A stretch of DNA of 64,000 nt, taken from the IMG/VR virus record IMGVR_UViG_3300031553_000354, positions 1 through 64,000 of that record; one strand, written 5' to 3'. Below the pieces are notes generated by a model. That model ran no database searches, was not told the origin of the DNA, and was given only the letters and a program-made list of their open reading frames with translations. The stretch is from a virus. Made by a program: the position numbers and the translations under genes. This document shows, piece by piece, positions 1 through 49,393 of this stretch (its first letter is position 1; each line of letters begins with the position of its first letter).

Positions 1-1
1 T

Positions 2-2191
2 GTTATTTGGGGCTATCCATTGGATATTTGGGATTTGGATAGAACGCGATCATTTTTATCGATATATAAACTTGGTGAATCCTTAGTTGAATATATTGAA
101 CAGGAATGTGGCCCATATGCAATGAAAATGTTTTTTGATTATGCATGTGGCGAGAATATATCAACCGCCATATCTTATTTATTCGGTTGGGATGAAAGAC
201 AGGCTCTCCAAACATTAAATAAACAATGGAGAAGCTATCTTTTTGAACGTTATCAGATTGATAAAAATGCAACGCAGCTATACAATAATCCGGATTCTAC
301 ATCAAACATTGGCATAGCATCTTGGGCACCACTGTCTAAATATATAACATATACTTGGGATGAATCGCAAGTGAGAATAGCTGATCTTAACAATGTTTAT
401 GCTTCTGATTGCAATCGCCATGTTAATTCGCTTGGAATATTAAGAAAAAATGCGATCATAGAAGGGGACTATCTCATATATGCTAGTATGAAGGATAGGA
501 ATGATTATATTACAATTTATGATTTGAAAAACAAAAAAGAAATTGAAAAAGATCGATTTGAAAATATAGCAAATATTACGTCTCCAGTCTATAAAGATGG
601 AACAACTGTATTCATTGGGCAAAATGTTAATGGATTCAAAAATATTTGTATAAAACCTGGCAATTATTTCTATCGGATTTTGAATTCACACTGTGACATC
701 CAATCATTGGTAACATATGGAAGATTTGTATATTTCATTGGAGATTACGAAGAACGTGGCGTCTATGATATCTATGCCTATATGAAAAATAATGGAAAAG
801 TAGCTCGACTCACTTGGGGCGCGAATGCTAGAGATCTTGGTTTAATTGAAAATGGATCAGGATTATATTTTATCATAGATGGCACAGAATATAATTATGT
901 AGCTATATATGACCTTGACATTCAAATTTTATATATCAGCCAGCCCATAGTTGAATACGTTCAATTTCCTTTTTTGACAAAGAATAATGATCTAATTGCA
1001 ACTATGTATGCAAATGCCCGATATCGGAATTTCAAGATTACAGCAAATACTATGCATACTATCCCATCTTCGGCACAATGGGCCACATCTTGGAAATATT
1101 CTTCTGAAGATCATGAAATTCAAAAAGCGAAATTTAAATGGAATCTTTCAATGGAACCGGTCACAGTAGGATACGACACATATTTTGGTGCCCGGGGAAA
1201 TATGGCATTAGCTTGGATCCGTGAAGATGGAGCAAGAAAATGGCTGTTTGCTGGATCCGAAAATGGGATAGCATTACTATCAAGCTGGCATAAACCATGG
1301 CTTACGAAATTTACAATGTTCCAGTGGTATAATATGTATAGATTTTATACAACTCGCAAGCTTATTCGGGAGCGTTCAGTTGAATTAATCGGGGGATTGC
1401 TGTTTAAAACGTCTGAATATAGTCAAACATACTTCAGTATTGGTGCCGGAAACAGGAAAAGAACCTTATATTTTTCATGGTCAGATTCTCACTATGGAGG
1501 ATTCTATTTTAAATATCCGGGGAAATATGAATATACTCAAAGTTATTTCCCGAAATTCTCCATGTCAAATTCTCTTAATAGAGATGATTATGGATATCAA
1601 CGATTTTCAAGAGGTTGGGTTTCAAATATATATGCCCAATATTACTATGATGACACAAGATACTCTACGTATTGGATGCCGTATTCAGGAACAAAATTTT
1701 GGTTAGCAGGGAATTTTGATGCGGATTGGTCAAATGGGAAAGTTGTTGATTGGAAAACACAGCTAATGCTAACAAAATATGTAAGTCTTGGCGAGCCAGC
1801 ATGCTGGGCAACAAGAATTATTGGCGGAATGACGCTTGGTGTTAATCCATATAAATATGAATTAGGCGGACCGACTTCTTATCGGGGATATGAATGGATG
1901 TCACTTTATACAAGACATTTTTGGTTAGCAAGCACAGAAATAAGATTGCCATTCTCATCCATAGCTGGGATATTTAGTCAGAAATTAGAGGGACCATTCT
2001 TGCATCATATTAAATTAAAATTTTTTGGTGATATAGGACAAGCATGGAATAAAAAACCGGATGACTTGATGTGGGGATTTGGTTTTGGACTTAGTGGATG
2101 GTTTAATTATATGCCAATCCAGTTTTATTGGGTAGCAAATGAAAATAATATGAAATTGCGGCCCTTCTTATCAATCAGTTACGACTTTTGA
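2..2191 (+). CDS. Omp85/BamA-TamA family outer-membrane beta-barrel protein with upstream propeller-like and peptidase-MA-like regions (5' truncated)
   Basis: Frame is open from the window edge. The C-terminus has the Omp85 lid motif LGGPTSYRGY, then STEIRLP, FFGDIGQAW, GFGFGL and a terminal Phe beta-signal (SISYDF). The middle region looks like TolB/PD40 repeats. Confidence 0.8.
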   Translation, partial: VIWGYPLDIWDLDRTRSFLSIYKLGESLVEYIEQECGPYAMKMFFDYACGENISTAISYLFGWDERQALQTLNKQWRSYLFERYQIDKNATQLYNNPDSTSNIGIASWAPLSKYITYTWDESQVRIADLNNVYASDCNRHVNSLGILRKNAIIEGDYLIYASMKDRNDYITIYDLKNKKEIEKDRFENIANITSPVYKDGTTVFIGQNVNGFKNICIKPGNYFYRILNSHCDIQSLVTYGRFVYFIGDYEERGVYDIYAYMKNNGKVARLTWGANARDLGLIENGSGLYFIIDGTEYNYVAIYDLDIQILYISQPIVEYVQFPFLTKNNDLIATMYANARYRNFKITANTMHTIPSSAQWATSWKYSSEDHEIQKAKFKWNLSMEPVTVGYDTYFGARGNMALAWIREDGARKWLFAGSENGIALLSSWHKPWLTKFTMFQWYNMYRFYTTRKLIRERSVELIGGLLFKTSEYSQTYFSIGAGNRKRTLYFSWSDSHYGGFYFKYPGKYEYTQSYFPKFSMSNSLNRDDYGYQRFSRGWVSNIYAQYYYDDTRYSTYWMPYSGTKFWLAGNFDADWSNGKVVDWKTQLMLTKYVSLGEPACWATRIIGGMTLGVNPYKYELGGPTSYRGYEWMSLYTRHFWLASTEIRLPFSSIAGIFSQKLEGPFLHHIKLKFFGDIGQAWNKKPDDLMWGFGFGLSGWFNYMPIQFYWVANENNMKLRPFLSISYDF

Positions 2192-2379
2192 AAATGAATG
2201 TTGAAAGAGAAACTAAACATATCTTGGGTCTAAGCGAAGTTCTGAAGATTCTCGCTAAAGAAATAACAGAAAAGGGTGCTTTTGATAAGGAAGATTTGGA
2301 ATTGCTCAGGAAAGTAGGATCGGATATCCTATTCAAAGGTGTTTCTTTGGAATATAATGAATATGATGAAAAGGGATAG
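2188..2379 (+). CDS. small hypothetical protein
   Basis: 63-aa ORF overlapping the upstream stop, same strand. Confidence 0.55.
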   Translation: MKMNVERETKHILGLSEVLKILAKEITEKGAFDKEDLELLRKVGSDILFKGVSLEYNEYDEKG

Positions 2380-2508
2380 ATATGAAAAAATTTTCATTCT
2401 TTAATTGGATAATAAAATATTCAAATTTCTATATATTTTTGAAAAATAACCAAGAAAATCTATTATTTTTATTCATAATCTTAATTAATTTATAAAAAAA
2501 GGAAAATT

Positions 2509-3150
2509 ATGATTTTCATTATAGGCGCGGGCGGGCATGGCAAAGTTGTGCTTGATGTGCTAAAAGCCAGACGAGAATTTTTTTCCGGAGATCCAGAGTT
2601 AACCCAAATTCCTGAATTATATACTGATAAAATTTGTTTTGCCGATCAAAATTCAGAATTGGCTGGTAAATATTTGAATGGCCACGAAATCCTGTATATG
2701 AAAACATATGCTTTGCGGGATATCAATTTCTTTTTTGTTGCCGTTGGCAATAATGAAATGCGGGCCAAAATTTATAATGAATTGAAATCGCGCGATTACC
2801 CTACAGATGTTCTTGCAAGTCCGTTTGCTTGTATATCTCCAGAAGCAGCCATAGGAAATGGCACATTAATCAATCACGGCGCGATAATTCAGCCTGGAAC
2901 ATTGATTGGAGAAAATTGTATAATCAACACTGGCGCTAAAGTTGACCATGATTGCAAAATCGGATCCCACTGCCATATAGCACCAGGATGTGTACTATGT
3001 GGAAATATTTTTGTTGGGGAGCGAACATTCATTGGGGCAGGATCTATAATTAGACCAGGAATCAAAATTGGCAAAAATTGTTTTATTCAAATGGGATCGG
3101 CGGTAACGCAAAATATCCCGGATAATACGGTATGGAAATTCCGGCAATAA
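2509..3150 (+). CDS. NeuD/PglD/PerB-family sugar N-acetyltransferase
   Basis: IIGAGGHGKVV, AVGNNEMR, hexapeptide repeats with IINTGAKVDHDC. Confidence 0.92.
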   Translation: MIFIIGAGGHGKVVLDVLKARREFFSGDPELTQIPELYTDKICFADQNSELAGKYLNGHEILYMKTYALRDINFFFVAVGNNEMRAKIYNELKSRDYPTDVLASPFACISPEAAIGNGTLINHGAIIQPGTLIGENCIINTGAKVDHDCKIGSHCHIAPGCVLCGNIFVGERTFIGAGSIIRPGIKIGKNCFIQMGSAVTQNIPDNTVWKFRQ

Positions 3151-3164
3151 ATGGAAGGAAGATA

Positions 3165-4145
3165 ATGTCAAAATCTATATTTATAACTGGATGTGCCGGC
3201 TTTATTGGTTCTCATTTTCTCAAGTATATATTTGATAATACAGATTGGAAAATTTTTGGATTAGACTCTTTAACATATGCGGGAAATCCTGAAAATATTC
3301 CAGATTATATCTTTGATAGTGACCGGTTTAAATTTATTTATGGTGATATTCGAGATATTTATTTGGCCCAAAAATATATGAGCCAATGTGAGTATTGTGT
3401 GCATTTTGCTGCAAGTACCCATGTGAGTAAATCGATATACAATACAAATGACTTTATTGATGTTGATGTCAAAGGGACACAAGTACTTCTTGATGTATTA
3501 AAACAGCATAAATTAGAACGATTTATTCATATCTCCACTAGTGAAGTATATGGAACCGCTCAACATTCTCCTATGACAGAATTGCATCCATTAAACCCTA
3601 GATCTCCATATGCTGCATCGAAATGTGGAGCAGATAGACTTTGTTTTTCATATATAACAACGTTTGATTTACCTATAACCATAATTAGACCGTTTAATAA
3701 TTATGGGTCCAATCAACATCCTGAAAAATTAATTCCACATTTGATTACGTCGATTCTGCAAGGAAAAAAAGGCAAGATTTTTGGTTCTGGTGAAGCGCAA
3801 AGGGATTGGCTATATGTGGAAGATACTATCGAAGGCATATTCAAAGCGTTGACTACTAAAAGCGCAAATCAAAAAATTATAAATCTTGCTACGAATAGAT
3901 CCATATCTGTTAATGAAATTGCAAATATGATCATAAAGGAAATCGGCGGAGAAATCGAATATACTGATTTCCGCCCCGGAGAAGTTTCTAAACACGAAGG
4001 ATCATATGAAGGAGCCAGATTACTATTAAATTGGGTTCCAAAAGTTAATATTGAAACAGGAATCAAATTAACAATTGAATGGTATAAAAATAATGAAAAT
4101 TGGTGGAACAATAGGCGGACCAGGCTCGGCTGCCAGATTACTTAA
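3165..4145 (+). CDS. NDP-sugar 4,6-dehydratase (extended SDR, RmlB/GMD-like)
   Basis: ITGCAGFIG, DSLTYAGN, HFAASTHV, STSEVYG, YAASK, NNYG...PEKLIP, RDWLYVED. Start moved to ATG 3165 after a GGAAGGA SD. Confidence 0.92.
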   Translation: MSKSIFITGCAGFIGSHFLKYIFDNTDWKIFGLDSLTYAGNPENIPDYIFDSDRFKFIYGDIRDIYLAQKYMSQCEYCVHFAASTHVSKSIYNTNDFIDVDVKGTQVLLDVLKQHKLERFIHISTSEVYGTAQHSPMTELHPLNPRSPYAASKCGADRLCFSYITTFDLPITIIRPFNNYGSNQHPEKLIPHLITSILQGKKGKIFGSGEAQRDWLYVEDTIEGIFKALTTKSANQKIINLATNRSISVNEIANMIIKEIGGEIEYTDFRPGEVSKHEGSYEGARLLLNWVPKVNIETGIKLTIEWYKNNENWWNNRRTRLGCQIT

Positions 4146-4154
4146 GGAGGACAG

Positions 4155-5231
4155 ATGATTAGATACGTTTATCCGGATCTTCCAAATCTTTCGGAAATCG
4201 AATTTGATTTAAAAGATGCATTGGAAACTGGGTCTATTACCATGTGTGACCAAGTTAAGCAATTTGAACGAACTATTTCAAAATATTTGAATATCCCATA
4301 TGTGCTTTGCATGGGCAATGCAACGTCATGTTTAATGCTCATGCTACGAAATTTAAAAGGTGATATTTTGGTTCCATCCTGGACATTTCATGCTACGTTG
4401 GCAGCATGTGCATGGAACAGATTAAATCCAATATATGTGGATATTAATCCTGATACATGGACAATCGATGTTGAGGATGCAGAACGAAAAATAACAACGA
4501 AAACTCAAGCAATTATGCCCGTCGACATATTTGGTTTACCTCCCGATTTTTCTGACCTATCGGAATTTGCCGATGTTCACAAAATTAAGCTATTATCAGA
4601 TTCCAGCCAAGGATTTGGATCAAAGTATAATGGCCAGTATATTGGTGGTTTTGGCGACGGAGAATGTTTTAGTCTTAGCGCTACTAAAGTGTTTACCGCG
4701 GGAGAAGGTGGAATATTTACTACCCGGGATAAATTTATGTATGAATCAATGAAAGCTGGTCGTCATTGGGGCGATTCTGGATTTTCTTATTTTGAAAGTA
4801 ATTATAACCCGTCTTCGATAGGATTGAATGGTCACATGACAGAATTTCAAGCCATATTAGGACAATGGGGGTTAAAACATTTAGATGAATCAATTGCAAT
4901 AAAACACAAATTAGTTGCACTATATAAAAAATATTTAGGCAATTCGGTCATTTATCAAAAAATCCCAAAAGATAGAACTACAACATATAAAGATTTTTCC
5001 ATATTAGTTCCTATTGAAAAACATAAACAAATTATGAAAAATTTGAATCATAATGAAATTCAATTCAAAAATTATTTTTATCCTTGTCATATGACCAATG
5101 CATATAAGAAAAATGTAAAACTTCCTGTTACAGAAGAATACTATAATAGATCTATTTCTCTCCCGATTCATAATAAGCTTATGGAAGAGGAAGTAAGATT
5201 TATATGCAATGTCATTTTGGAGATTTTATGA
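4155..5231 (+). CDS. DegT/DnrJ/EryC1/StrS PLP-dependent sugar aminotransferase
   Basis: VPSWTF, VDINPDTW, DSSQGFGS, FSLSATKVFTAGEGG (PLP Lys), SLPIH. AAGGAGG SD. Confidence 0.93.
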   Translation: MIRYVYPDLPNLSEIEFDLKDALETGSITMCDQVKQFERTISKYLNIPYVLCMGNATSCLMLMLRNLKGDILVPSWTFHATLAACAWNRLNPIYVDINPDTWTIDVEDAERKITTKTQAIMPVDIFGLPPDFSDLSEFADVHKIKLLSDSSQGFGSKYNGQYIGGFGDGECFSLSATKVFTAGEGGIFTTRDKFMYESMKAGRHWGDSGFSYFESNYNPSSIGLNGHMTEFQAILGQWGLKHLDESIAIKHKLVALYKKYLGNSVIYQKIPKDRTTTYKDFSILVPIEKHKQIMKNLNHNEIQFKNYFYPCHMTNAYKKNVKLPVTEEYYNRSISLPIHNKLMEEEVRFICNVILEIL

Positions 5232-6289
5232 GAATTATGATTATAGGATTTTATGGAATGGGCAACTGTGGAGACGAAGCCATTTTAAATGGACTAATTA
5301 CAACCATTCGGAAAATTAATCCGGATATTGGAATTGACGTAGCGACAGAATTGCCATTTATATATCATGATCAGTATAATGAATGGAAGAGCAAAGGCGT
5401 TCCATTAAAAAGGAATGGAATTTATTATGATGTGGGAATCCGCACACTAACTAATTATAATTTTGGAAAAGGAAAAGAACAATATGGTTTGATCATACTC
5501 GGAGGTGGTGGACTTGCAATTGGATATGGTTATGGTTTGGTGCTCTTTGCTATGAATGCTGGAATCCCGGTCATAAATATGGGAATTGAATATAAAAAGG
5601 GTGAACTTAGGAATTCAGATCTTTTTCATGAATTTCTTAAACGATTTTCTGATATTGCAGTTCGATCTAGAGATTCAAGCGATTTCTTAGTTTCTTTGGG
5701 AATTGAGCATAATCTTACATTTTGTCCCAGCTTACAAATTGATCCTATAGCATATGGACCACTGCCGGATGATTATATTGTAGTAACACCAAGAAGGACA
5801 AATGATATAGATGATGGAAAACAAATACAAATAATAATTAATAAATTAAGAGAATTAAATAAACCGGCAATCCTACTTCCATTCAGTAAATATGATTTAA
5901 CTCAACAGCCGATAGATATGAAAATATGTAATGAAATCAATTCACAATATTCAAATTCAATGGTGCTTCCTGTCGACGGATATACGCCCGAAGCATATAA
6001 ATTTATTATTTCCAAAGCATCACTTCTTATAAATTCCGGAAGATTCCATGCATCCATATTTGCTGCCGAAGCTGGAATTCCAACAATTCATAGTTATCCA
6101 ATAGAAAGTTCTGGTAAAATTTATAATTTTCTATCTGAATTTGGAATTGAAAAACTAAATCCATGGTCAGAAGGATTTGGCTCCTTGATTAATTTTGGCA
6201 GTCCGGAAAATAAAGTGATTATGGATAGATTTCGTGAATTGGAGAAAATGAATTCAAAAATACTGAGGAAGTATATTCCCAATTCTTAA
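5228..6289 (+). CDS. polysaccharide pyruvyltransferase (CsaB/WcaK-like)
   Basis: GFYGMGNCGDEAIL, LGGGG, VRSRDS, SGRFHASIFA. ATG 5228 overlaps the upstream stop. Confidence 0.88.
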   Translation: MRIMIIGFYGMGNCGDEAILNGLITTIRKINPDIGIDVATELPFIYHDQYNEWKSKGVPLKRNGIYYDVGIRTLTNYNFGKGKEQYGLIILGGGGLAIGYGYGLVLFAMNAGIPVINMGIEYKKGELRNSDLFHEFLKRFSDIAVRSRDSSDFLVSLGIEHNLTFCPSLQIDPIAYGPLPDDYIVVTPRRTNDIDDGKQIQIIINKLRELNKPAILLPFSKYDLTQQPIDMKICNEINSQYSNSMVLPVDGYTPEAYKFIISKASLLINSGRFHASIFAAEAGIPTIHSYPIESSGKIYNFLSEFGIEKLNPWSEGFGSLINFGSPENKVIMDRFRELEKMNSKILRKYIPNS

Positions 6290-6336
6290 AAATTTTTCTG
6301 GGAAAAAATATAGTTAACGCGCGAAGAGGAAAGCAA

Positions 6337-7299
6337 ATGAAAATATCAGTTGTGATTCCAACATATAATCGAGGCCATTTTTTAGCATATTCATTATATT
6401 TATATGCAAAACAAACTATGAGGGATTTTGAAATCATTGTCATTGATGATGGATCAATTGATAATACTTTTGAAATATGCAAAGCGTTCGGTAAATTTCT
6501 TAATATCCGATATTTCCAAAGTGATAGAAAGTCTGAATCAATTTATCAAAGTGGCGGACCATTAATAAATTTTGCAGTAAAAAATATTGCTCTCGGCAGT
6601 ATTATTTTATATTCTGATCCAGAAGTTATGCCATTTCCAAATTTTGTTGAATCCCACTATGGTTCTCATCAAATTGATACAGTTATTACTGAACCAATGT
6701 ATATCGCTTCAGGAGTTCCCGGCAAGATTCGTGATAATGTTATTATTAGGGATGGAACTAAGAATTGTGTTAAAGGTTTAACACTTAAAACCTGGATAGA
6801 TCATGTGCGGATTTTAGGATATTGGGAAGACTGGAAAAATTCAGGAGCAATTAAAAATATAAAAGAATTTTGGAATGACATGTGGGCAAAAATAATGCAA
6901 CTTCCAATGAACTATATTGGCGACCCAAATATGGGATATGGATATGCTGATGGGGAACAACATTTTTGGGGATTTCAAGGATCTCAAGCCGGACTTTCAT
7001 TTCCAAAGGATATTTTTATCCAAATACACGGCTGGGATGAATCTATTGAAAAACCCGGATATTGGATGGGAGAAGATGGGGAATTCGGGGCCCGAATGAT
7101 AAAGCATGGAGTGGGTGTGATTGAAAACCCAAACATAAAAGCAGTTCATATTTACCATCCAAAACCACAAACATATACGGATGAGGAACGCAAGAAATAT
7201 GTAGTTAAAAAATGCGAAGATCCAGATTATAAAATAGCTAATCAAGATATAGATTGGGGGAGTGCAGAAAGATTAAAAATCAAGGAAATTGAATTATGA
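6337..7299 (+). CDS. GT2 family glycosyltransferase
   Basis: SVVIPTYNR, IIVIDDGSID, GWDE...WMGEDGEF, AVHIYH. Confidence 0.9.
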   Translation: MKISVVIPTYNRGHFLAYSLYLYAKQTMRDFEIIVIDDGSIDNTFEICKAFGKFLNIRYFQSDRKSESIYQSGGPLINFAVKNIALGSIILYSDPEVMPFPNFVESHYGSHQIDTVITEPMYIASGVPGKIRDNVIIRDGTKNCVKGLTLKTWIDHVRILGYWEDWKNSGAIKNIKEFWNDMWAKIMQLPMNYIGDPNMGYGYADGEQHFWGFQGSQAGLSFPKDIFIQIHGWDESIEKPGYWMGEDGEFGARMIKHGVGVIENPNIKAVHIYHPKPQTYTDEERKKYVVKKCEDPDYKIANQDIDWGSAERLKIKEIEL

Positions 7300-8342
7300 A
7301 ACCGAAAATGTCTGTAATATTGGAAACTGCCAGATATGGCGGTCTAGATTGGCAATTTAAATTATTTGCCAATCAAACATTTCAAGATTTTGAATTGATA
7401 CTTATTGACGGATGTTGGGAACAAAGGGAAACGGAAATTATTGATTTGGCGCGAAAATTGAATATAAAAATGAAATATCTTCGAGAACAATATCCATTCA
7501 AAACTGAACATACGCGCCCAATAAATGTGAACACATGTATGATGCAAGCAAACGGAGATTACTTTGTATTTCTTGATGATTTCCACATTTTTCCAAATAA
7601 TTTTTTGGAAGAACATTACAAAATCTGTGAAAAGGGATATGCCGGAATGGTAAGATGGGACATCGTCAAATGTGATGGGGAACTTGACTATTCGACATAT
7701 ATACCGACGGTTGATAGTATAGATCCCAGATGGAATTATTTTATGGATCATAAGTGGGAATTTGAACAATATGGAAATTGGTTTATTGGTGTTCCTTGGG
7801 ATTGGTGGTGGCCCAATTCAACAAGTGTTCCAAGAAAATGGATTGAAATGGTAAATGGATTTAATGAACTTTATTGTGGCGGTACTGGAAGCGAAGATAA
7901 TGATACTGCTTATAGAATGGCTGCATCAGGTATGAAATTTGCATACAATCCGACAATTACTGCTTATCATATTCAACATGGGAAAATATCAAATAAATCA
8001 AGATCTCACGGCGAAAAAAACACAAATTTATTTTTATCAATGAGAAAATTAAAGCATAGAATTGGAGCCCCATGTAACTATCGACATGATAGGCGACCAT
8101 TTACTAAGAATGAATATTATAAAGATGGGGATCCTAATTTAATTGAAAATGAATTATTATTTACATGGTTCCAGGATGGTTATAAAGTATTTCAATGTAA
8201 ACATTGTGGCGAATTCGGAGCCATAGATGGACAGCAAATGTTAACGAACACAAAAAACAGATGCAATTCAAATATTTATATTCCACCATCTAAAATTCAT
8301 TTTCCAGATGGGCCTGTTTATAATTGTACAAATATAAAATGA
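7296..8342 (+). CDS. GT2 family glycosyltransferase with C-terminal CxxC
   Basis: FELILIDG, FLDD, NGFNE...GSEDND, AYHIQH, CKHCG. Paralog of 10567-11619. Confidence 0.85.
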   Translation: MKPKMSVILETARYGGLDWQFKLFANQTFQDFELILIDGCWEQRETEIIDLARKLNIKMKYLREQYPFKTEHTRPINVNTCMMQANGDYFVFLDDFHIFPNNFLEEHYKICEKGYAGMVRWDIVKCDGELDYSTYIPTVDSIDPRWNYFMDHKWEFEQYGNWFIGVPWDWWWPNSTSVPRKWIEMVNGFNELYCGGTGSEDNDTAYRMAASGMKFAYNPTITAYHIQHGKISNKSRSHGEKNTNLFLSMRKLKHRIGAPCNYRHDRRPFTKNEYYKDGDPNLIENELLFTWFQDGYKVFQCKHCGEFGAIDGQQMLTNTKNRCNSNIYIPPSKIHFPDGPVYNCTNIK

Positions 8343-8363
8343 TCTATCAAGAAAAGGAAAAAT

Positions 8364-8969
8364 ATGAAATTTAATGAAGTAAATCAATTGGTTCCACTTT
8401 TATACAAAGATTTATGGTATAAATTGGAAAAAGAATTTTTATATGGCGCGGCATATAATGCACCTCCTGGTGCGCTTGTGGAAATTGGAACTTCTTGCGG
8501 ATATTCATCTGTATTTTTAGCCGCGGCGGCTCACGAAAAAGGAGCAAAATTTTATACAATAGATCCGTATGGATTGCCTGGCGAAAGAGAAAATCATGAT
8601 ATTGGTAATGATCTACGTATAAATGAATTCCATAAAAATATGGAAAAATTAAATATTCCAAACAACTGGGAATTGATCCAAAATTATTCATATGAGGCAG
8701 CAAAACAATTTCATGAACCGGTAGCTTTTGTATTTATAGATGGATGCCATTGTTATAAATGTGTAAAAAGAGATTACGAATTATGGGCATCTAAATTAAT
8801 GATAAATGGAATTTTAGTGTTCCATGATGCTGGATTTGATGGACCAGCAAAAGTCATAAAATTAGTAGAAAATTCAAACACATTTGGTGATAAAAAAGTT
8901 GGTTCAAATCATCCAATATCTGGATATACTGCATATTTTATAAAAATAAATAAGGAATCGAACAAATGA
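8364..8969 (+). CDS. class I SAM-dependent methyltransferase (Methyltransf_24-like)
   Basis: VEIGTSCGYS, IDPY, FIDGCH, GILVFHD. Confidence 0.88.
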   Translation: MKFNEVNQLVPLLYKDLWYKLEKEFLYGAAYNAPPGALVEIGTSCGYSSVFLAAAAHEKGAKFYTIDPYGLPGERENHDIGNDLRINEFHKNMEKLNIPNNWELIQNYSYEAAKQFHEPVAFVFIDGCHCYKCVKRDYELWASKLMINGILVFHDAGFDGPAKVIKLVENSNTFGDKKVGSNHPISGYTAYFIKINKESNK

Positions 8970-9893
8970 AAATTTCTATAATCACTGTAATAGCCAATAG
9001 ATTGAAGTATCTAAAGCCATTAATGTGGAATCTATTTAATTATCAAGATTTAGATAAATCTGAATTTGAACATATTATCGTTGATGATGGAGGCGTTGAA
9101 AATATTACATCATGGCTAATGGATAATTATCTTGGAAAAAACGTTCGATATATCAAAACCAATCGAAAAAAACGCCGAGGTATGCCAAATGTTTCAGCCG
9201 GACGATCAATTCCAACCAACTTAGGTGTTAAATTTGCGAAAGGCGACATCATACTGATTTGCGATGCAGAAATGTATATGCTCGAATTTAATCATCTATC
9301 TACATTTTGTAGTAAAATTGGTCCAAAACAAATAATGGCGGCAATACCTATTTCGACCAGAAATGAATCAGATTTAATTTTTTATTTAGCTAATTATAAA
9401 AATCCGGACGCATTTGAAAAATATTTGAAAGAAAATTATACTAATAATGGACTATGGAGTTTTCCAGTAGATGCGCCTTTGACTGTTCCCGCTAAAATTA
9501 ATCCTTATGGTCAAATTTATGCAAAGATTAATGGACAAATTCATTTTTTATATCGGGGTTCAGGATATTGGGCACAGCGCCGGGAAGATTATATCAATAT
9601 TGGCGGATTTGATGAAAAAGCGTGGGGAATGGCTGGAGATGATTATGAATTATCTTATCGTTTTGACGCTGATGGATTTTCATATTCCTTCCCCATTGCA
9701 CTTTGTACATAATTTTCATGGGAAAGGATTTGAAAGGCATTCTTGTGAAATTAATAAAGACTTACTTGAAGAAAGTAAAAAAATCAAATTAGATCTTTTT
9801 GAAAAAATTAATAACAAAACACTACCAATACATTTAAAATTTGATCCGCAATTTTATAATGGTGATATTTATATTGATTTATCGAAACCATGA
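8966..9893 (+). pseudogene. GT2 glycosyltransferase interrupted by a +1 frameshift near 9677-9680
   Basis: ORF 8966-9712 has IIVDDGG, ICDAE and GGFDE...GDDYE, but stops before the HxxH motif. That motif (FVHNFH) is in the +1 frame, which runs to 9893. Confidence 0.7.
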
Positions 9894-9907
9894 ATGGAGA
9901 AAAATAA

Positions 9908-10507
9908 ATGAATATAGAGGAAACGAAAAAACTTAGATTACAATTTGGCAGTCAAGTTTCCGAAGCAGAATGCATTGAATTATATGATAAAGTATTAAAC
10001 ACACCCGCTGGCGCAGTAGTTGAAGTTGGATCTGCCACAGGTGGCTCTATTATTTTTCTTATAGCTGCTGCTCAAGAAGTCGGAAAAATGGTATATTCAA
10101 TTGATCCATATCCAGAAGATCTCGAAGATAAAGCTTATGGATATGGCCATGGCATGATGAAATCATGGAAGAATGCATTCAAAAAAAATATTTTGAATGG
10201 AAAATATGATAATATTGTTCAATACAATGAAGATGTGGCAGATTGCATTGATAAAATACCAGATGGTTTATCATTTGTATTCATTGATGGTTGTCATGAA
10301 TACGAATTTGTGAAAAATGATTTTGAACTATTAGTTCCAAAACTCATATCTGGTGGTTGGATTTATTTGCACGATGCTGGCTGGGAAGCTGGATCAATTT
10401 CAAGGGATCCCGAAAAAGGAGTAAATAAGATAGCCAAAAGAATTTGTCCTCCCAAATTCCAAGATTGTAAACCATGTGGTGTGATGTATGGCGGCAGAAA
10501 AACATAA
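9908..10507 (+). CDS. class I SAM-dependent methyltransferase (Methyltransf_24-like)
   Basis: VEVGSATGGS, SIDPY, FIDGCHEY, GWIYLHD. Paralog of 8364-8969. Confidence 0.88.
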   Translation: MNIEETKKLRLQFGSQVSEAECIELYDKVLNTPAGAVVEVGSATGGSIIFLIAAAQEVGKMVYSIDPYPEDLEDKAYGYGHGMMKSWKNAFKKNILNGKYDNIVQYNEDVADCIDKIPDGLSFVFIDGCHEYEFVKNDFELLVPKLISGGWIYLHDAGWEAGSISRDPEKGVNKIAKRICPPKFQDCKPCGVMYGGRKT

Positions 10508-10566
10508 AGAGCTGATAGGAAATTAATATGGCTTGGAGCAGAAAATATAATAAATTGGAGGAATAA

Positions 10567-11619
10567 ATGCGCATAAGTGTTTGTCTTTCGACTAGAAGAT
10601 ATGGCGGATTGCTTCGACAACTTGAATTTTTTAGGCATCAAACATTTCCATTGGATGAATTTGAAATCGTTATAGTTGATGGTTTATATTGGAAACGTGA
10701 ACAAGAAATAAGATCAAAAGCCGCTGAATGGGGACTTAACCTGAAATATTCTGCGCCTAGAAAACTCGACAGAAAAGTCTCAATTGATCATCCATCAATG
10801 AGAAATGATGCTCTTGTTCTTGCCGGGGGGGAATTAATAGTATTTTTTGATGATTATCAAATACCGAGTCCACAATTGTTATCTGAACATTGGAAAATTT
10901 ATAAAAAGGGTTATTGTTGCCAAGGTAGACAATTCTATTTTGATATAGTAGATTTTGATAATCTACCGGCCGGGGCAAATTTATCTTTGAAAAAATCAAA
11001 TAACGTTGATTTAGGATCTATTGAGCAAGAAGTATCATCAACAACGTTTTATACACACAATTGTTCTGCTCCATTGAATGAATTAATCAAGATCAATGGT
11101 TTTGATGAAAGATATAATAGCGGCACTGGCGGAGAAGACTATGACTGTGGGATGCGACTTGGATTGATTGGAAATAGGATGATGTATAATCCAAATGCAT
11201 TGTGTTATCATATGGAGCACCATTCAATTAAAATATATCCAGCTGTCCCCGATATTTGTGGGTTCATACATGGGGCACAAACAAAAGAGAACTTTTTGAA
11301 ATTATATCCGACTATGACCGAGGAAGATATTCAATGGATTGAGTGGAATAATATAAAAAAATATGCGCAAAATGGAGATAATCATAATAGGAATTTAATT
11401 TATAACCATCCAAATTTTACTGGTAAATTTTCCACTGACACACTGGATACTTGGGATGAAAATGGATTGATATTTTGCAAATGCAAAATTTGCGGATGGG
11501 AAGGTATAATTGATAGCATACCCCTATTCCATTGGAATTCTGAAAATAAGAACAATGAAGCGCCCAAAGAATATTTTGATTTGGATTTTGAAAGGCAAAA
11601 AATTGCGAAAAAAAATTAA
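10567..11619 (+). CDS. GT2 family glycosyltransferase with C-terminal CxxC
   Basis: FEIVIVDG, FFDD, NGFDERY...GGEDYD, CYHMEH, CKICG. Confidence 0.85.
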   Translation: MRISVCLSTRRYGGLLRQLEFFRHQTFPLDEFEIVIVDGLYWKREQEIRSKAAEWGLNLKYSAPRKLDRKVSIDHPSMRNDALVLAGGELIVFFDDYQIPSPQLLSEHWKIYKKGYCCQGRQFYFDIVDFDNLPAGANLSLKKSNNVDLGSIEQEVSSTTFYTHNCSAPLNELIKINGFDERYNSGTGGEDYDCGMRLGLIGNRMMYNPNALCYHMEHHSIKIYPAVPDICGFIHGAQTKENFLKLYPTMTEEDIQWIEWNNIKKYAQNGDNHNRNLIYNHPNFTGKFSTDTLDTWDENGLIFCKCKICGWEGIIDSIPLFHWNSENKNNEAPKEYFDLDFERQKIAKKN

Positions 11620-12746: not shown

Positions 12747-13226
12747 TTGGAAATGGCTCTTTGTCCACTTTGCTTATCAGAAACGTCAGATATTTTATGT
12801 AAGCTATGTAGTGCCAATTATTTATGGGACAAAAAATATAAAATATTCAGAAAAAAATTGAACGTGGTGGGCACAAGATATAAATCCCAACACTTGCTCT
12901 ATGAAATTTGTAAATCACTATATGGCACAGTATTCGAAGAAGTTGCGTTCCCGCGATGTTATAGCAAAAAAGGGGCGCTTCTTCGTTTTGATATCTATAT
13001 CCCAAAAAAGAAAATTTTGATAGAATACCAGGGTCGGTGTCATAATGTCTATATAAAACATTTTCATAAATCTATGAAACAGTTTAAAGAAGCCCAACAT
13101 CGTGATTTGAGAAAAAAGATTTTTTGTTCAAAATTTGGTTATAATTTAATAGAATTTTTTCCTACTGATCGAATATTTGCCCATGAAGTAAAAATGAAGA
13201 TAGATAACCCGGAAATGAAAATATGA
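12747..13226 (+). CDS. Zn-ribbon plus Vsr/DUF559-like PD-(D/E)xK endonuclease
   Basis: CPLC...CKLC, LRFDIYIP, IEYQGRCH, RDLRKK. Confidence 0.7.
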   Translation: MEMALCPLCLSETSDILCKLCSANYLWDKKYKIFRKKLNVVGTRYKSQHLLYEICKSLYGTVFEEVAFPRCYSKKGALLRFDIYIPKKKILIEYQGRCHNVYIKHFHKSMKQFKEAQHRDLRKKIFCSKFGYNLIEFFPTDRIFAHEVKMKIDNPEMKI

Positions 13227-17040: not shown

Positions 17041-18066
17041 ATGAAAAGATTTAAACATAAGACGAAATCGGAAATTATTGAAATATGTAAGTTATATACT
17101 GGTGGATCATCAGCAAATGCACTATCTAAACAATTTAATGTGGGTGTGCGCAGTATTAATAGAATTTTGCATAATAATGGAATATCAGCGCATTATCCGA
17201 AGAAATCGATTGATGAAATAAAATTGATATGCAGATTATATGAAAATGGCACGAAAACAAAATATTTGGCTAGAAAATTTAATGTAGTTCAATCAACCAT
17301 AAGGCAAATTCTATATCGTAGTAATGTTCAAATTCGCCGGGATGATAAAACCCACGCTAAGAAATATGATATTGATGAACATTTTTTTGATATAATAAAT
17401 TCACCAGAAAAGGCATATTTTTTGGGGTTACTTTATGCAGATGGATATAATAACGAATCCAAAAATACTGTTGCTGTCCAACTCAAGGAATCAGATAAGC
17501 AGATATTAATTGATCTGAAAAAATTAATCAAAACTAATCGACCGCTATATTATGTTGTTTCAAATACATCATATGGAATAGCAAAATGTTGGAAATTAGT
17601 TATAACAAATAAACATATAAGCCAAAAATTGAACGAATTAGGATGTGTGCAAGCAAAAACATTTAAATTAACATTTCCTGAATGGCTTGAAGAAAATTTA
17701 TATCCTCATTTCATTAGAGGATATTTTGACGGCGATGGGTCGATTGGAATTTACAGAAAAACTCTTCATTTTAGTATTGTTGGTACCATTTCATTTTGTA
17801 ATTTTTTGAAACAATTATTTGCTGGTAACTTCAAAGTAAATTGCTGCATTTCGAAACGACATAAAAATCGAGATAATAATATTAGACAATTAGAAATTCA
17901 AGGCAATAGGCAAGCAATCAAAATTATGAATTGGCTTTATGATAATGCGACCATAAAATTAGAACGAAAATATCAAAAATATATTTCGATTTTTGATATG
18001 AGTATTGGAAAATATAGAGGAGAAAAATTATGTTCAGCCGCGATCTCAACAGTTGGAAAGCCATAG
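17041..18066 (+). mobile_element. free-standing LAGLIDADG homing endonuclease with N-terminal HTH repeats
   Basis: YFLGLLYADG and FIRGYFDGDG motifs; two HTH-like N-terminal repeats; C-terminal WLY...LERKY. Confidence 0.9.
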
Positions 18067-19588: not shown

Positions 19589-20440
19589 ATGCCACAAAAT
19601 CTTGATCAAAAAATAAAACGGGCACATGACGAAGTGCTCTATCCCACTGTATTAGTTAGAACAAAAAATGCGAGTGGTTCGGGAACCGTTCTTTATTCGA
19701 AACTAAAAGATGAATCTAAATCAGAATATGAAACATATGTTTTGACAAATCATCATGTTATTGATGATTGTATTAAAGTTTCGAAAGAATGGGATCCAAT
19801 GTTGGAAGCGGAAATAAAAAAAGAAACTAGATCAACTGTCAATGTTGAATTTTATCGATATAAACATTATTCAAGATGCATTGGAAGGTTTTCCGTTGAA
19901 GGCGATATAGTTACCTATAATAAGGATTATGACGTTGCTTTGCTAAAACTGCGTTCAGTAGAAAAAGTAGCTTCCGTCGCGCATTTATATTTGTCTGACA
20001 TAAAAGATATTCATGTCTTTGATAAAGTCGTAGCTTGTGGCTGCCAATTAGCACATCCTCCAATCCATACTCGCGGAGAAATTATGTATATGGATGATGA
20101 AATTGAAAATTACAATTTTTGGCTTTCCAATGCCCAAATTATATTTGGTTCGAGTGGCGGAGGAATTTATCTTGACAAAAATGGTAAACATGAATTTATC
20201 GGAATTCCATCTCGCATAGCAATTAGTGGATGGGATGATGCTGTCACCCATATGGGATATTTTATTCCCATAGATCGAATATTTAGTTGGCTTAAAGAAG
20301 AATTTTATCATTTTATTTACGATTCGAAGGTAGATGCCAAAAAATGTGAAAAATTACGGGAAAAGAAAAAGTTGGCAATGAAGAAATCATATCTGGAAAA
20401 GCAAAAATCGGAATTAAATGACGATGACGAAGATGAATAA
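19589..20440 (+). CDS. trypsin-like (S1) serine protease
   Basis: GSGTV, LTNHHV (His), DVALL (Asp), FGSSGGG (Ser). Confidence 0.9.
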   Translation: MPQNLDQKIKRAHDEVLYPTVLVRTKNASGSGTVLYSKLKDESKSEYETYVLTNHHVIDDCIKVSKEWDPMLEAEIKKETRSTVNVEFYRYKHYSRCIGRFSVEGDIVTYNKDYDVALLKLRSVEKVASVAHLYLSDIKDIHVFDKVVACGCQLAHPPIHTRGEIMYMDDEIENYNFWLSNAQIIFGSSGGGIYLDKNGKHEFIGIPSRIAISGWDDAVTHMGYFIPIDRIFSWLKEEFYHFIYDSKVDAKKCEKLREKKKLAMKKSYLEKQKSELNDDDEDE

Positions 20441-41653: not shown

Positions 41654-42166
41654 ATGCCCAGTGGAATATATGATCATAAAAAATTGAAAGAATTTTGGAA
41701 ATCTTGGAGTCGTTGGTCAAGAAAATATCCACGTTGTCAAAAATGCGGAACAACTAAAATTCGGCATCATTCCAAAGGACTATGCCAAAAATGCTATTCT
41801 GCAGAATATCTACAATCTGATACATACAAAAATTATTATGAAAAAAGCAAGTATTGTAGATGGAGTAAACATACTCTTAGGGGACATAGATTGCATGGTT
41901 ATATAATTGATATTTCCATAAATGAACTTGAAGAAATAGCCAAAATTGCAACTCATTGTCCAATTTGTGGGCGCGAATTAAGTTGGAATAATTCCAAACT
42001 TTTACCAAATTCTCCGAGTTTAGATCGGAAGAATAATGGAAAAATTATTGATAAAAGTTCAATTTGGATTATTTGCCATTTATGCAATGCCACAAAACAA
42101 AATAGAACTTTTAAGCAATTTATTGAATATTGTGAAATGGTATCTCAAAAATTTATAGGGAAATAA
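41654..42166 (+). mobile_element. free-standing HNH (His-Me) homing endonuclease with Zn fingers
   Basis: CQKC...GLCQKCY, CPICG, SLDRKNN, ICHLCNATK. Confidence 0.8.
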
Positions 42167-42179
42167 ACTAAAAAGTAGC

Positions 42180-45100
42180 ATGTATCAAAATTATTCATAC
42201 GAACAAAGAGAAAATCTAGATTATAGGGATCGACAACTGCCCAGTCCTTTGAAAACTATAGGAGCTGGAGCATTTTCGCTTTTGGCTTTTGTAGTTATCA
42301 GAGGAGCTGCAATTCGTGGTTCTTCTGCTGCGAGTAAAGCTCTGTCTCGCAACTTGGGAAGAGTAGTAAGGTCGGTTGAAGGTGTGGCTTGGACAAAATC
42401 TTATAGAAATTTAAGAGCCGCCGCACTAACGAATGCCCGGGCTGAGGCTAGGCAATTCGGAGTATTAACTCCAAAAGATGTTGGAATTGCTGCTACGGTT
42501 AAAGAAATACCTTTAATTCAAAGAGCTCGAGCTAAATTCACAACTACTTTTGCTAAACAATTCAAAGCTAGACGGCAATATTATTATAGAGATTTAGGTC
42601 TGCGAGAAAAAGAATTATACGCAGCTCTAAAAGATGGTTATCATCCAAGAGCGCTTGATCAAAGACTGAAAGCATTAAAAACATTTATGAAGCCTGATGG
42701 AGCATTTTCTGCTCGTTTCATGGCTGCGGCTGGAAAATGGGGCGAGCGGTATGCGAAAATGATCCCAGGATTTTACGTTGCAGATCAAGCATTGGGATTG
42801 TTCGAAAAAGAAAGACCGGAACATCCAAAGCCGGCATGGTATAACATACCTGGACATGTTGCCGGAATGGTTAGATTTGGAATAGGATTTGCACCAATTG
42901 ATTTGGCATTTTGTGGCGCTCTTCGTTTTTTCAGATATGGTAGAGCTGTGGCGGCAAAAAGTGCTCAATTAGGAGTTCGTGAATTTCCACACGTAAGAGA
43001 AGGATTTACAAAAGCCGTTGAAACATTGCACGTAAAGGGTGCTCAATGGCATGCATCCATTTCCAAACATTGGGCCGCCCGCAGACATGGAGCTTGGCCT
43101 TCGATTCAAGAACTCAAACGGAGTATTAAAGAACGCAAAGCTCCGCATTCAATGGATATTGCTAGGCTGTATTCTGATATTGTGAAAGATGCTAAGGTCC
43201 AAAGGAAACCATATTTCCGAATGGAACAGCAGCTCAATCAAATTCTTGGCGTTCTTGGTATGAGAAAAGATCCCGAATTGCTTCGCGAAATGGCAGGAAG
43301 TACTGAAATCAAAAAAGCATTTCATGAAGTCCTTGGCAAATATGAGCGCCGTCCAACCCAAACATTTATAGAATATGCTCTTAAAACTCCACAACGCCCG
43401 GCAGATTGGGGCCCACGTAGGCTTTCAACTACGGCGCACATTAAAAGATATGCAAAGGAGGCTCATTGGGATCCGGAAACCACAAATAATGCTTTAAAAC
43501 TGCTTGGAGGGAAAGAATTATATTATGGTAAGAACATTCTTAGGAAGGGCAACTTTTCAATGTTCAATGCCAGTTTTACCGCTGGTAAGATAATAGATGT
43601 AATGGGGAAATGGAAGATGCCATTTATTAATTGGCATCCTTTCGAACGAATGATGATTACCGGAATTCCCAAGATAGGAATTCCGAGCAAAGGTTCCGCA
43701 TTTAGGATTCTTGATGAAAAACAATCTGCATTAATGGCCGAAGCAGCCATCGGTGCCGATTTAAATGTTACCAGATCTCCGCAACTTAAAATTGGGGAAT
43801 ATTTTATGAGGATTGGAGATCATGTTTTTAGATTTAGTCCTGAAAAACTTATTAAACGAATTAGCGGACATTGGAAAGTTAGCGTTGATACAATTACTGC
43901 TGGAGAAAGAAGACATTTCCAAGGTTTGGTTGAAAGCCAAACCGATTATAAACATACTGGCTGGCTAGGACATTTACGTCAAAAATTTGAATTAGGTCAA
44001 TCCCCCCATTTCATAGGACGACGACTTAAAGAGTTTGTGATCCAAGATTTTAACCCCGAAAGTCCGCATGTATTGATGAATGAAAAAGGAAAATTTGTGA
44101 ATATGCTCAAGCAGCTCCAAGGAGATAAGATCCTTAGTCCCAGGGAGCAAAAAGAATTCATAAATTATTCAAGGGCAGTGGGTCGGCATTTATATGGATC
44201 AGAACAAACAGCTTTAGAAATTTTCCATAATAATCAAGGTCTTAGAGGAAAAGTTCTTGATGTCTTAGGTGGCGTTGATGCAAAGAAAGCTAAAAAGATT
44301 TTAAATGATACAAATATAGATAAGGTAATTGATGATTTATCGCTATTTGATTATGCTTTGCCGGAAACATATTCCCAAAGAACTGTTCAGGAAGTGCGTA
44401 GAGCTCTCCATGATGTACAAAATCTCGTAGGGGCTGATCGAGAATTTTTATTGAGATCAAGAGCAACAGTTGTTGGTCAGGCTAGCAATTTGACTGTGCA
44501 AGATTATCTTATGGGACAATATTTTAAAAAAACATTAGAAAATTATAGTCAGGTCGGAAAAATTACCGAAGGCATGTATGATAAGATTTTCAAGTCAATT
44601 GATGATGCATTCATATCTAAAACAGAAAAGTCTAAGGCGAAATCACTGTTTGTTAGTATGAAAATTAATCATCCCATGGCTGATTATTTGAATCAAGAAG
44701 TTATCAATAGTTTGGATACTGTTGGACATCTTAAAGATATCATTGCTCCAAATGAAAATTTGCTTAGAGAAGTATTTAAACTGGATTATAAATCTCTTCG
44801 GGAATCTGTCAAGATAAATAGATTTATGCGGGATACTCTTATTCCTCTTGAAGTCCGAGGATATATGGGTCCCATAAATGAAATATGGAGAGTTCACGGC
44901 CGTGGAGCTCCATCTGCTCCGAAAGATCTTTTTGGTGCAGCCCCAGGATTCGGGGACATGATCAAAAGTGATTTTAAGAAATTTTTTAAAATTTCTGACT
45001 CCGCAACCCAAATAAATTATGAACCATATATTACTAAACAAAGTATGCTTCTCAATCGATGGGCAATTAGGCCATTCAATATGACATTAGGATGGATTGG

Positions 45101-49391: not shown

Positions 49392-49393
49392 TT

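Follow-up and report, generated by a model that had tools for sequence, protein, structure and literature searches.

A phage gene for a diverged peptidase-propeller-Omp85 outer-membrane protein

Introduction

Omp85 proteins are core machines of diderm envelopes. The present analysis concerns a member of this superfamily encoded at the very start of the IMG/VR virus record IMGVR_UViG_3300031553_000354; the stretch analysed, hereafter the window, comprises bases 1-64000 of a single 72,786-bp virus contig that has no terminal repeat. The first long open reading frame (ORF) of the window, at nucleotides (nt) 2..2191, encodes parts of a peptidase domain, a beta-propeller and an Omp85-type beta-barrel. 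The protein belongs, as a strongly diverged member, to the peptidase-propeller-Omp85 ('WD40-Omp85') subfamily of diderm bacteria, and its gene is a genuine phage gene.

Several described systems bear on this protein. A 'WD40-Omp85' cluster, in which a TolB-like propeller is placed before the barrel, has been likened to a BamA-BamB fusion (Heinz and Lithgow 2014, PMC4104836). The part of that account devoted to the cluster describes the propeller, and a peptidase domain does not figure in that part. Literature searches returned no experimental work on this family. For PlpD, which is another kind of Omp85 protein, an N-terminal domain that reaches the cell surface is described (Heinz and Lithgow 2014, PMC4104836). 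An association between proteolysis and an Omp85 machine is exemplified by BepA, which is presented as a periplasmic zinc metallopeptidase that is found at the BAM complex and works on LptD (PMC8423444). With regard to phages, the main text of a survey of October 2026 reports 1,603 outer-membrane proteins (OMPs) of the beta-barrel kind, 16-stranded ones included, in 1,303 huge phages (18.1%); these OMPs are often near envelope genes, and receptor interference is proposed as their role, with lambda Lom cited (Yuan and Chen, bioRxiv 10.64898/2026.10.24.761521). The words Omp85, BamA and TolB are absent from that main text, although its supplements might list such proteins, and no report of a phage-encoded Omp85 protein was found in literature searches.

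The truncated gene and its motifs

The contig starts inside the gene. The ORF therefore represents the C-terminal three quarters of a peptidase-propeller-Omp85 protein of about 940 amino acids (aa), and about 210 N-terminal residues, including the signal peptide and the HExxH motif, are absent. Full-length homologues are 923-946 aa long and align colinearly with the ORF from their residue ~211 onwards. The features of the ORF, several of them mapped from a structure model of the closest homologue (P0002), are as follows.

2..2191, + strand (frame 2): 5'-truncated ORF of 729 codons plus stop, open from the first base of the contig
2..259, + strand: C-terminal helical part of a Peptidase_MA_2-like (zincin) domain, mapping to P0002 residues 211-296
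284..1066, + strand: six-bladed TolB-like beta-propeller, mapped from the P0002 model
1139..2188, + strand: 16-strand Omp85-type beta-barrel, strands mapped from the P0002 model
1838..1915, + strand: loop L6, between strands 11 and 12, with ELGGPTSYRGY (P0002 model mapping)
2021..2047, + strand: FFGDIGQAW, at the end of strand 13 (P0002 model mapping)
2171..2188, + strand: C-terminal strand ending in SISYDF, with the stop codon at 2189-2191

The helical part of the zincin domain contains the segment IYKLGESLVEYIEQECG (nt 62-112); its assignment is supported by helices at residues 200-294 of the P0002 model and by Peptidase_MA_2 matches in homologues, and both the HExxH and the downstream glutamate of this domain are encoded upstream of the contig start. 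Within L6, GGPTSYRGY is encoded at nt 1865-1891 and its YRGY at nt 1880-1891. This loop matches the Omp85 lid-loop (V/I)RG(F/Y) motif, and FFGDIGQAW matches the Omp85 (F/G)xDxG motif that contacts L6. The last three residues (Y937, D938, and F939 in full-length numbering) are invariant in the phage clade; the beta-signal of BAM substrates typically ends, as here, in an aromatic residue. An earlier note, made without database searches, had already pointed to these Omp85 motifs, all of which lie where it placed them, in frame 2 of the + strand. Its reading of the ORF as an Omp85 barrel preceded by propeller-like repeats and a peptidase-MA-like helix also stands, with the correction that the gene is cut by the contig start. 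A scan of nt 1-3200 for promoters and terminators gave no excess of sites over shuffled sequence.

Membership of the peptidase-propeller-Omp85 family

Because the protein gives no direct family match, the motifs by themselves are weak evidence for Omp85 identity, and membership was established through homologues. A word-indexed protein search returned five of them, 923-946 aa in length and 45-86% identical, each covering 100% of the query; the closest, P0002, is identical at 626 of 729 positions (86%), and its 90% cluster includes a member on a contig of 130,853 bp. All five full-length proteins of this phage clade start with a hydrophobic segment indicative of a signal peptide, followed by HELNH, HEINH, or HEITH and then by MEGIAEAW, so that the HExxH residues (H126, E127, and H130) and the glutamates E189/E193 are kept throughout. 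The Pfam model Peptidase_MA_2 matches two of six phage-clade sequences weakly (best E 7e-6).

A profile (A1) built from the five full-length homologues and the window protein, with no cellular members, was run against 1.84 billion cluster representatives. It found 829 proteins at E<=1e-3, of which 383 reach E<=1e-10; most matches are 900-1,000 aa long and align in three to four stretches that span all three regions. From the 150 listed matches, 35 were chosen by hand (top ranks plus a spread) and scanned with Pfam at E<=0.01. PD40 was recognised in 33 of these, Peptidase_MA_2 in 25, and Omp85 (PF01103) in 21, with 19 of the latter at or above the gathering score; two more carry ShlB without PF01103. 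The barrel part is illustrated by profile positions 746-904, which match residues 760-919 of the family member P0034. Through such intermediates, the window protein is linked to PF01103 by sequence homology.

Across 121 aligned members of the family, the HExxH, the downstream glutamate, the G-G...R-G of L6, and the F-x-D-x-G of strand 13 are at least 90% conserved, with G832, G833, R838, and G839 (L6) and F885, D887, and G889 (strand 13) nearly invariant. A broad family profile (A3) also finds the phage copy on G001:C110, with a match over positions 1-928 (E 4.7e-207); this profile includes phage-clade rows (e.g. P0005, from the same 90% cluster), and the independent evidence is provided by the A1 matches to cellular members. 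The ESM Atlas yielded only leads of the same family type, and nothing meaningful came from searches of Protein Data Bank (PDB) sequences with either the window protein or a profile. Searches for further phage copies were negative within their scope. In 50,697 deposited phage genomes, tblastn found no match to the phage protein, and a cellular family member gave two short propeller-level matches and no barrel match. Scanning IMG/VR with the phage-clade alignment gave 73 pattern matches, none of which was confirmed, and scanning it with the protein P0008 gave no match.

Structure model

An AlphaFold2 model was made for P0002, the homologue 86% identical to the window protein, from a 75-row alignment (mean predicted local distance difference test score, pLDDT, 84.5; predicted template modelling score, pTM, 0.84). 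It comprises a helical/beta zincin domain at residues ~30-295, a propeller at residues 305-565, with about 24 strands from residue 316 to 565 that correspond to six four-stranded blades, and a barrel of 16 long strands at residues 590-934, the strand number that had been predicted before a model was available. Strands 11 and 12 are joined by the loop with YRGY, and strand 13 carries FGDIG. The matches listed by Foldseek against the PDB are Omp85-type barrels, namely TamA, BamA, Sam50, and Toc75 (the last in a TOC-TIC entry), with E-values from 8.6e-12. Pairwise superposition with VIA-align placed model residues 590-939 on BamA of Deinococcus radiodurans with Z 23.7 and a root-mean-square deviation (rmsd) of 4.2 A over 310 residues, and the barrel on E. 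coli BamA, TamA, and Sam50 with Z ~20-21. Residues 323-561 superpose on residues 167-410 of E. coli TolB, where 225 residues align at an rmsd of 2.6 A (Z 21.6).

The model contains no POTRA domains, and Pfam gave no POTRA match in six phage-clade sequences and 35 relatives; the protein is therefore not classed as a BamA or a TamA. The combination of a zincin domain with a TolB-like propeller, in a protein without POTRA domains, speaks more for a proteolytic role at the outer membrane than for insertion of the BamA type.

Phage origin of the gene

Three further phage-like contigs carry homologues that are 45-51% identical to the window protein. Two of them (L001 and L002) come from metagenomes, and the third (L003) is binned in a metagenome-assembled genome (MAG) of Cloacimonadota. 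L001 and L002 are near-identical, and the three contigs thus represent two independent lineages. They carry phage genes for a prohead protease, an exonuclease, an HNH endonuclease, an RNA ligase, and endolysins. A trypsin-like protease gene, which precedes the terminase gene in the window (19589-20440), occurs 1-3 kb downstream of the homologue in L001-L003, compared with about 17 kb from the Omp85 ORF in the window. The MAG with L003 has its own cellular copy, a protein of 998 aa with all three Pfam domains; its best BLASTP segments against the phage protein reach only 21-30% identity.

Within the window, the Omp85 ORF is co-oriented with its neighbours, and GC content ranges from 31 to 44% with no step near the ORF. 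Contigs assembled from run X3, whose study is not that of the possible source runs (X1 and X2), bear on continuity: one covers nt 1-1124 with no differences and extends 1,496 nt further upstream, and a second covers nt 1767-2651, again with no differences, and runs past the stop codon into the beginning of the gene that follows. The assembly graphs of X1 and X2 branch at nt 98-127: the overlap of the window with a contig of 55.6 kb (X1) and one of 8.4 kb (X2) is limited to those 30 nt. Past that point the two contigs are unlike the window, and on their path the frame of the gene stops after 10 codons. The branch may reflect an insertion or the genome of a variant, and is probably the reason for the contig's beginning there.

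Phylogenetic analysis grouped eight phage sequences into one clade on a long stem, with a Shimodaira-Hasegawa-like (SH-like) support of 100, and placed P0008 as its sister. Twelve cellular copies from Cloacimonadota form their own clade among other cellular members, apart from the phage clade, and in neither tree are the phage clade and P0008 grouped with them. When the phage clade, P0008, and Cloacimonadota were held as one clade, the constraint was not rejected by the approximately unbiased (AU) test (p-AU 0.28), whereas holding the phage clade and Cloacimonadota together without P0008 was rejected (p 4e-7). These trees, in which long branches are involved, do not single out a donor of the phage gene. 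Several expectations of the earlier note are borne out by these results. It had regarded the gene as a phage gene without a visible boundary, in agreement with the orientation, the uniform GC content, the three phage-like contigs, and the bridging X3 contig; it had called for an Omp85 phylogeny, and the phage copies separate from all cellular copies; and no support was found for the case that it named as fatal, namely a prophage junction in a host chromosome or a chimeric assembly.

The virus and the neighbourhood of the gene

ORFs of 100 aa or more number 66 in the window. All long ones that do not overlap lie on the + strand, and those on the - strand are short (100-182 aa), each overlapping a longer + strand ORF. 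PHROGs identified terminase, portal, capsid, tail sheath, and baseplate genes, together with several homing endonucleases. The terminase is 27-32% identical to terminases of 177-235 kb phages, and two IMG/VR relatives recognised through their terminases (84-86% identical), of 98 and 109 kb, are rated by CheckV as 38% and 53% complete. The virus, a large phage, is therefore probably a jumbo myovirus. Genes for homing endonucleases of the HNH, LAGLIDADG, and endonuclease VII types are located at 12747-13226, 17041-18066, and 41654-42166, and copies of the endonuclease VII-like gene are found at several places in relatives. Three consecutive giant ORFs of 2403, 2010, and 2032 aa occupy 42180-61748; the third carries endolysin-like domains (phrog_20474 and phrog_894) and, judged by these domains, probably encodes a virion-associated lysin.

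Directly after the Omp85 gene comes a 63-codon ORF (2188-2379) with no family match, no hydrophobic segment, and no counterpart in L001-L003. It is followed by a group of genes:

2509-11619: 9-kb glycan-synthesis cassette

The cassette encodes a PglD-like acetyltransferase, a nucleoside diphosphate (NDP)-sugar 4,6-dehydratase/epimerase, a DegT aminotransferase, a polysaccharide pyruvyl transferase, four GT2-type glycosyltransferases, and two Methyltransf_24 proteins; no flippase or polymerase was recognised in it. It is syntenic in the IMG/VR relative G063, with 41-72% aa identity. Directly before the cassette, at the position held by the Omp85 gene in the window, G063 encodes a 343-aa UPF0164/PorV-like barrel (L023, 6569-7600), which scores 33.7 bits with UPF0164 (above the gathering score) and 25.1 bits with PorV (below it). 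The barrel gene of G063 is preceded by genes for two small membrane proteins and a trypsin-like protease.

In the other phage-like contigs, the homologue lies close to genes for cell-wall lysis. A PF11860 muramidase gene is located just downstream of it in L001 and L002, and an amidase_2 gene just upstream in L003, so that an endolysin-type gene is found within two genes of the homologue in all three related loci (two independent lineages). Directly upstream of the homologue is the gene of a conserved, highly charged protein, 117-126 aa long, that has the motif WCKxCKSKE (L001 4279-4638, L002 157-510, and L003 8532-8912); no signal peptide and no Pfam match were found in it. Predicted small lipoproteins, with a signal peptide followed by a cysteine, are encoded just downstream in L001 (7460-7822) and L003 (12570-12977), and none in L002. 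The L001 lipoprotein gene begins at the base that directly follows the Omp85 stop codon, and the two lipoproteins are not obviously related.

The host and the cellular copies

The earlier note had described the architecture as a cellular type of diderm bacteria and the host as diderm. The first point agrees with the breadth of the A1 matches and with the presence of a cellular copy (E<=1e-30) in 56 of 61 sampled Cloacimonadota genomes. A diderm host is very likely: an outer membrane is a requirement for an Omp85 barrel, a PorV/UPF0164-like barrel is encoded by a close relative of the phage, and L003 belongs to a Cloacimonadota MAG. Cloacimonadota is the likely host phylum, a reasonable guess based on the frequency of the cellular copies, on the presence of PorV genes in all five Cloacimonadota genomes searched (far from the cellular peptidase-propeller-Omp85 gene), and on the binning of L003 in that phylum. 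When 20 kb of the window were compared with 232 Cloacimonadota genomes, eight gave matches, of 25-53 nt (E 6e-5 to 1e-3). At the three of these eight places that were checked for spacers of clustered regularly interspaced short palindromic repeats (CRISPR), no direct repeats were present, so that none of the three is a spacer. Within this scope, neither a spacer nor any other direct link to a host was detected.

In four Cloacimonadota loci (L026-L029, from G020, G050, G034, and G013), the cellular gene is the end of a conserved gene run. It directly follows an MlaD-domain (MCE) gene in all four, this neighbour being confirmed by Pfam in two loci and assigned by BLAST clustering in the other two. 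Further upstream, three of the four loci contain genes for signal peptidase I, a radical-SAM protein, and a 416-aa protein of unknown function. A possible hint of the MlaD-linked operon is that the cellular protein functions in lipid or envelope homeostasis. The contexts of the phage and cellular genes all concern the envelope.

Proposed function and alternatives

The reading preferred here joins identity and mechanism: a genuine phage gene for a diverged peptidase-propeller-Omp85 protein that acts as an outer-membrane protease. Taken jointly, the two are held with moderate confidence. The full-length protein would be exported through a Sec signal peptide, as seen in the homologues, and the host BAM machine would insert the 16-strand barrel, with its terminal aromatic residue, into the outer membrane. 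By analogy with BamA, in which POTRA domains take the corresponding position, the zincin domain and the propeller would face the periplasm. The propeller may then catch envelope proteins and the HExxH peptidase cut them, as the conserved catalytic residues suggest, with the result that the outer membrane and its attachment to the cell wall would be reworked during infection. As for the payoff, which is the least certain step, it is tentatively suggested that the protein helps envelope breakdown at lysis, together with the neighbouring endolysins. A narrower version, in which the protein would itself be the outer-membrane step of lysis, is prompted by the location of the gene beside two different kinds of endolysin in two phage lineages. 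The TolB-like propeller would grip lipoproteins or OmpA-like tethers and the zinc protease would cut them, in a spanin-like manner; this version is considered unlikely.

A number of observations weigh against the outer-membrane protease reading. The window protein has no Pfam match at E<=1, the Omp85 and PD40 models included, and no match in PHROGs, and its single NCBIfam match (E 0.021, 14.5 bits against a cut-off of 139) was treated as noise. The catalytic part lies outside the window, and the activity of the window copy rests on the 86%-identical homologue. An adjacent endolysin gene is not seen downstream of the Omp85 ORF in the window, and the adjacency to endolysins rests on two independent lineages only, L001 and L002 being near-identical. 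The two close relatives have no copy in the available 98 and 109 kb, which are fragments only. By analogy with PlpD, the protease could also conceivably be surface-exposed rather than periplasmic.

Among the alternatives, superinfection exclusion or receptor remodelling is favoured by the window itself, where the gene stands directly before the glycan cassette, and by the close relative G063, in which this position is held by another outer-membrane barrel. The protein would degrade, mask, or displace receptors, possibly together with products of the cassette, so that other phages could not adsorb, a role in line with the receptor interference proposed for the beta-barrel OMPs that 18.1% of huge phages are reported to carry in the main text cited above (10.64898/2026.10.24.761521). 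In the more distant relatives, however, the gene is not beside glycan genes, and the protease is expected to be periplasmic and not at the surface by analogy with other Omp85 proteins; the explanation is seen as a minority one, somewhat improbable for this gene. The phage copy could alternatively replace a host function and so preserve the envelope through a long infection, once host gene expression is shut off. The near-universal occurrence of the cellular protein (56/61 sampled Cloacimonadota genomes), its place behind an MlaD-domain gene in an envelope operon that is conserved, and the retention of all catalytic and barrel motifs in the phage clade would fit such a role. Yet identity to the cellular protein in the L003 MAG is only 21-30% (best BLASTP segments), the very long branch is unlike typical host-like auxiliary genes, and the available parts of two close relatives have no copy; replacement is held to be rather unlikely.

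That the protein works as a BamA/TamA-like insertase or translocon for phage-encoded outer-membrane or surface proteins, one of the roles put forward in the earlier note, is very improbable. The L6 and strand-13 motifs and the Z-scores of 20-24 to BamA, TamA, and Sam50 would fit such a machine, and a related phage does encode another outer-membrane barrel; but the POTRA domains are absent, with the zincin domain and propeller in their place, no other OMP was recognised in the window (PHROGs on all large ORFs, Pfam on ORFs up to nt 20440), and the host has BamA-sized Omp85 proteins of its own, further barrel matches having been seen in G001. Finally, it is extremely unlikely that the gene is not a phage gene at all and derives from a host gene at a prophage junction or from an assembly chimera. 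Its position at the very end of a contig, the branching of the X1/X2 assembly graphs at nt 98-127, and the classification of the related record G062 as a provirus by IMG/VR might be cited for this view. They are outweighed by the X3 contigs, which reproduce nt 1-1124 (with 1496 nt upstream) and 1767-2651 without differences, by the homologues inside three other phage-like contigs, by the distinctness of the phage clade from all cellular copies, and by the uniform composition.

Significance

Phage-borne OMPs are already known, and the WD40-Omp85 protein family is already catalogued. The apparent novelty lies in finding a protease of this type, from the Omp85 superfamily, encoded by a conserved phage gene, and it suggests that the phage reworks the host cell envelope. 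The subfamily is widespread, with its 829 cluster representatives, and a phage copy in which all catalytic and barrel motifs have survived a long history of its own points to an activity that is useful in infection. The phage version also offers a compact handle for finding the substrates of the peptidase-propeller-Omp85 family, and it adds a concrete and unusual case to the huge phages that carry many envelope proteins.

Comparison with known systems

The comparison with BepA is a functional analogy only: in both cases a zinc protease would act at an Omp85 barrel, in BepA for envelope-protein quality control, but BepA is a soluble M48/TPR protein without barrel fusion. TolB shares the six-bladed propeller (Z 21.6, rmsd 2.6 A, 225 residues), whereas the phage protein lacks the N-terminal domain of TolB and has its propeller fused to a protease and a barrel. 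With BamA, TamA, and Sam50, the protein has in common the barrel fold (Z 20-23.7 over ~290-310 residues), the YRGY of L6, and the FGDIG of strand 13; it differs by the absence of POTRA domains, and identity in the structural alignments is ~10-17%.

The OMPs of huge phages provide the closest parallel on the viral side, with a large phage that carries a host-type barrel beside envelope genes such as those for glycosyltransferases. The types named in the main text of that survey are OmpA, OmpX, S-layer-associated proteins, and TonB-dependent receptors (Yuan and Chen, 10.64898/2026.10.24.761521). The strongest likeness is to the cellular WD40-Omp85 proteins. The window protein stands apart from them in being phage-encoded, on a very long branch, 21-30% identical (best BLASTP segments) to a cellular member and missed by the Pfam Omp85 and PD40 models, but it shares with them, as judged together with its full-length homologues, the three-part architecture, the length, and a colinear profile match, and also the L6 and strand-13 motifs of the barrel; the HExxH...E of the peptidase is present in those homologues.

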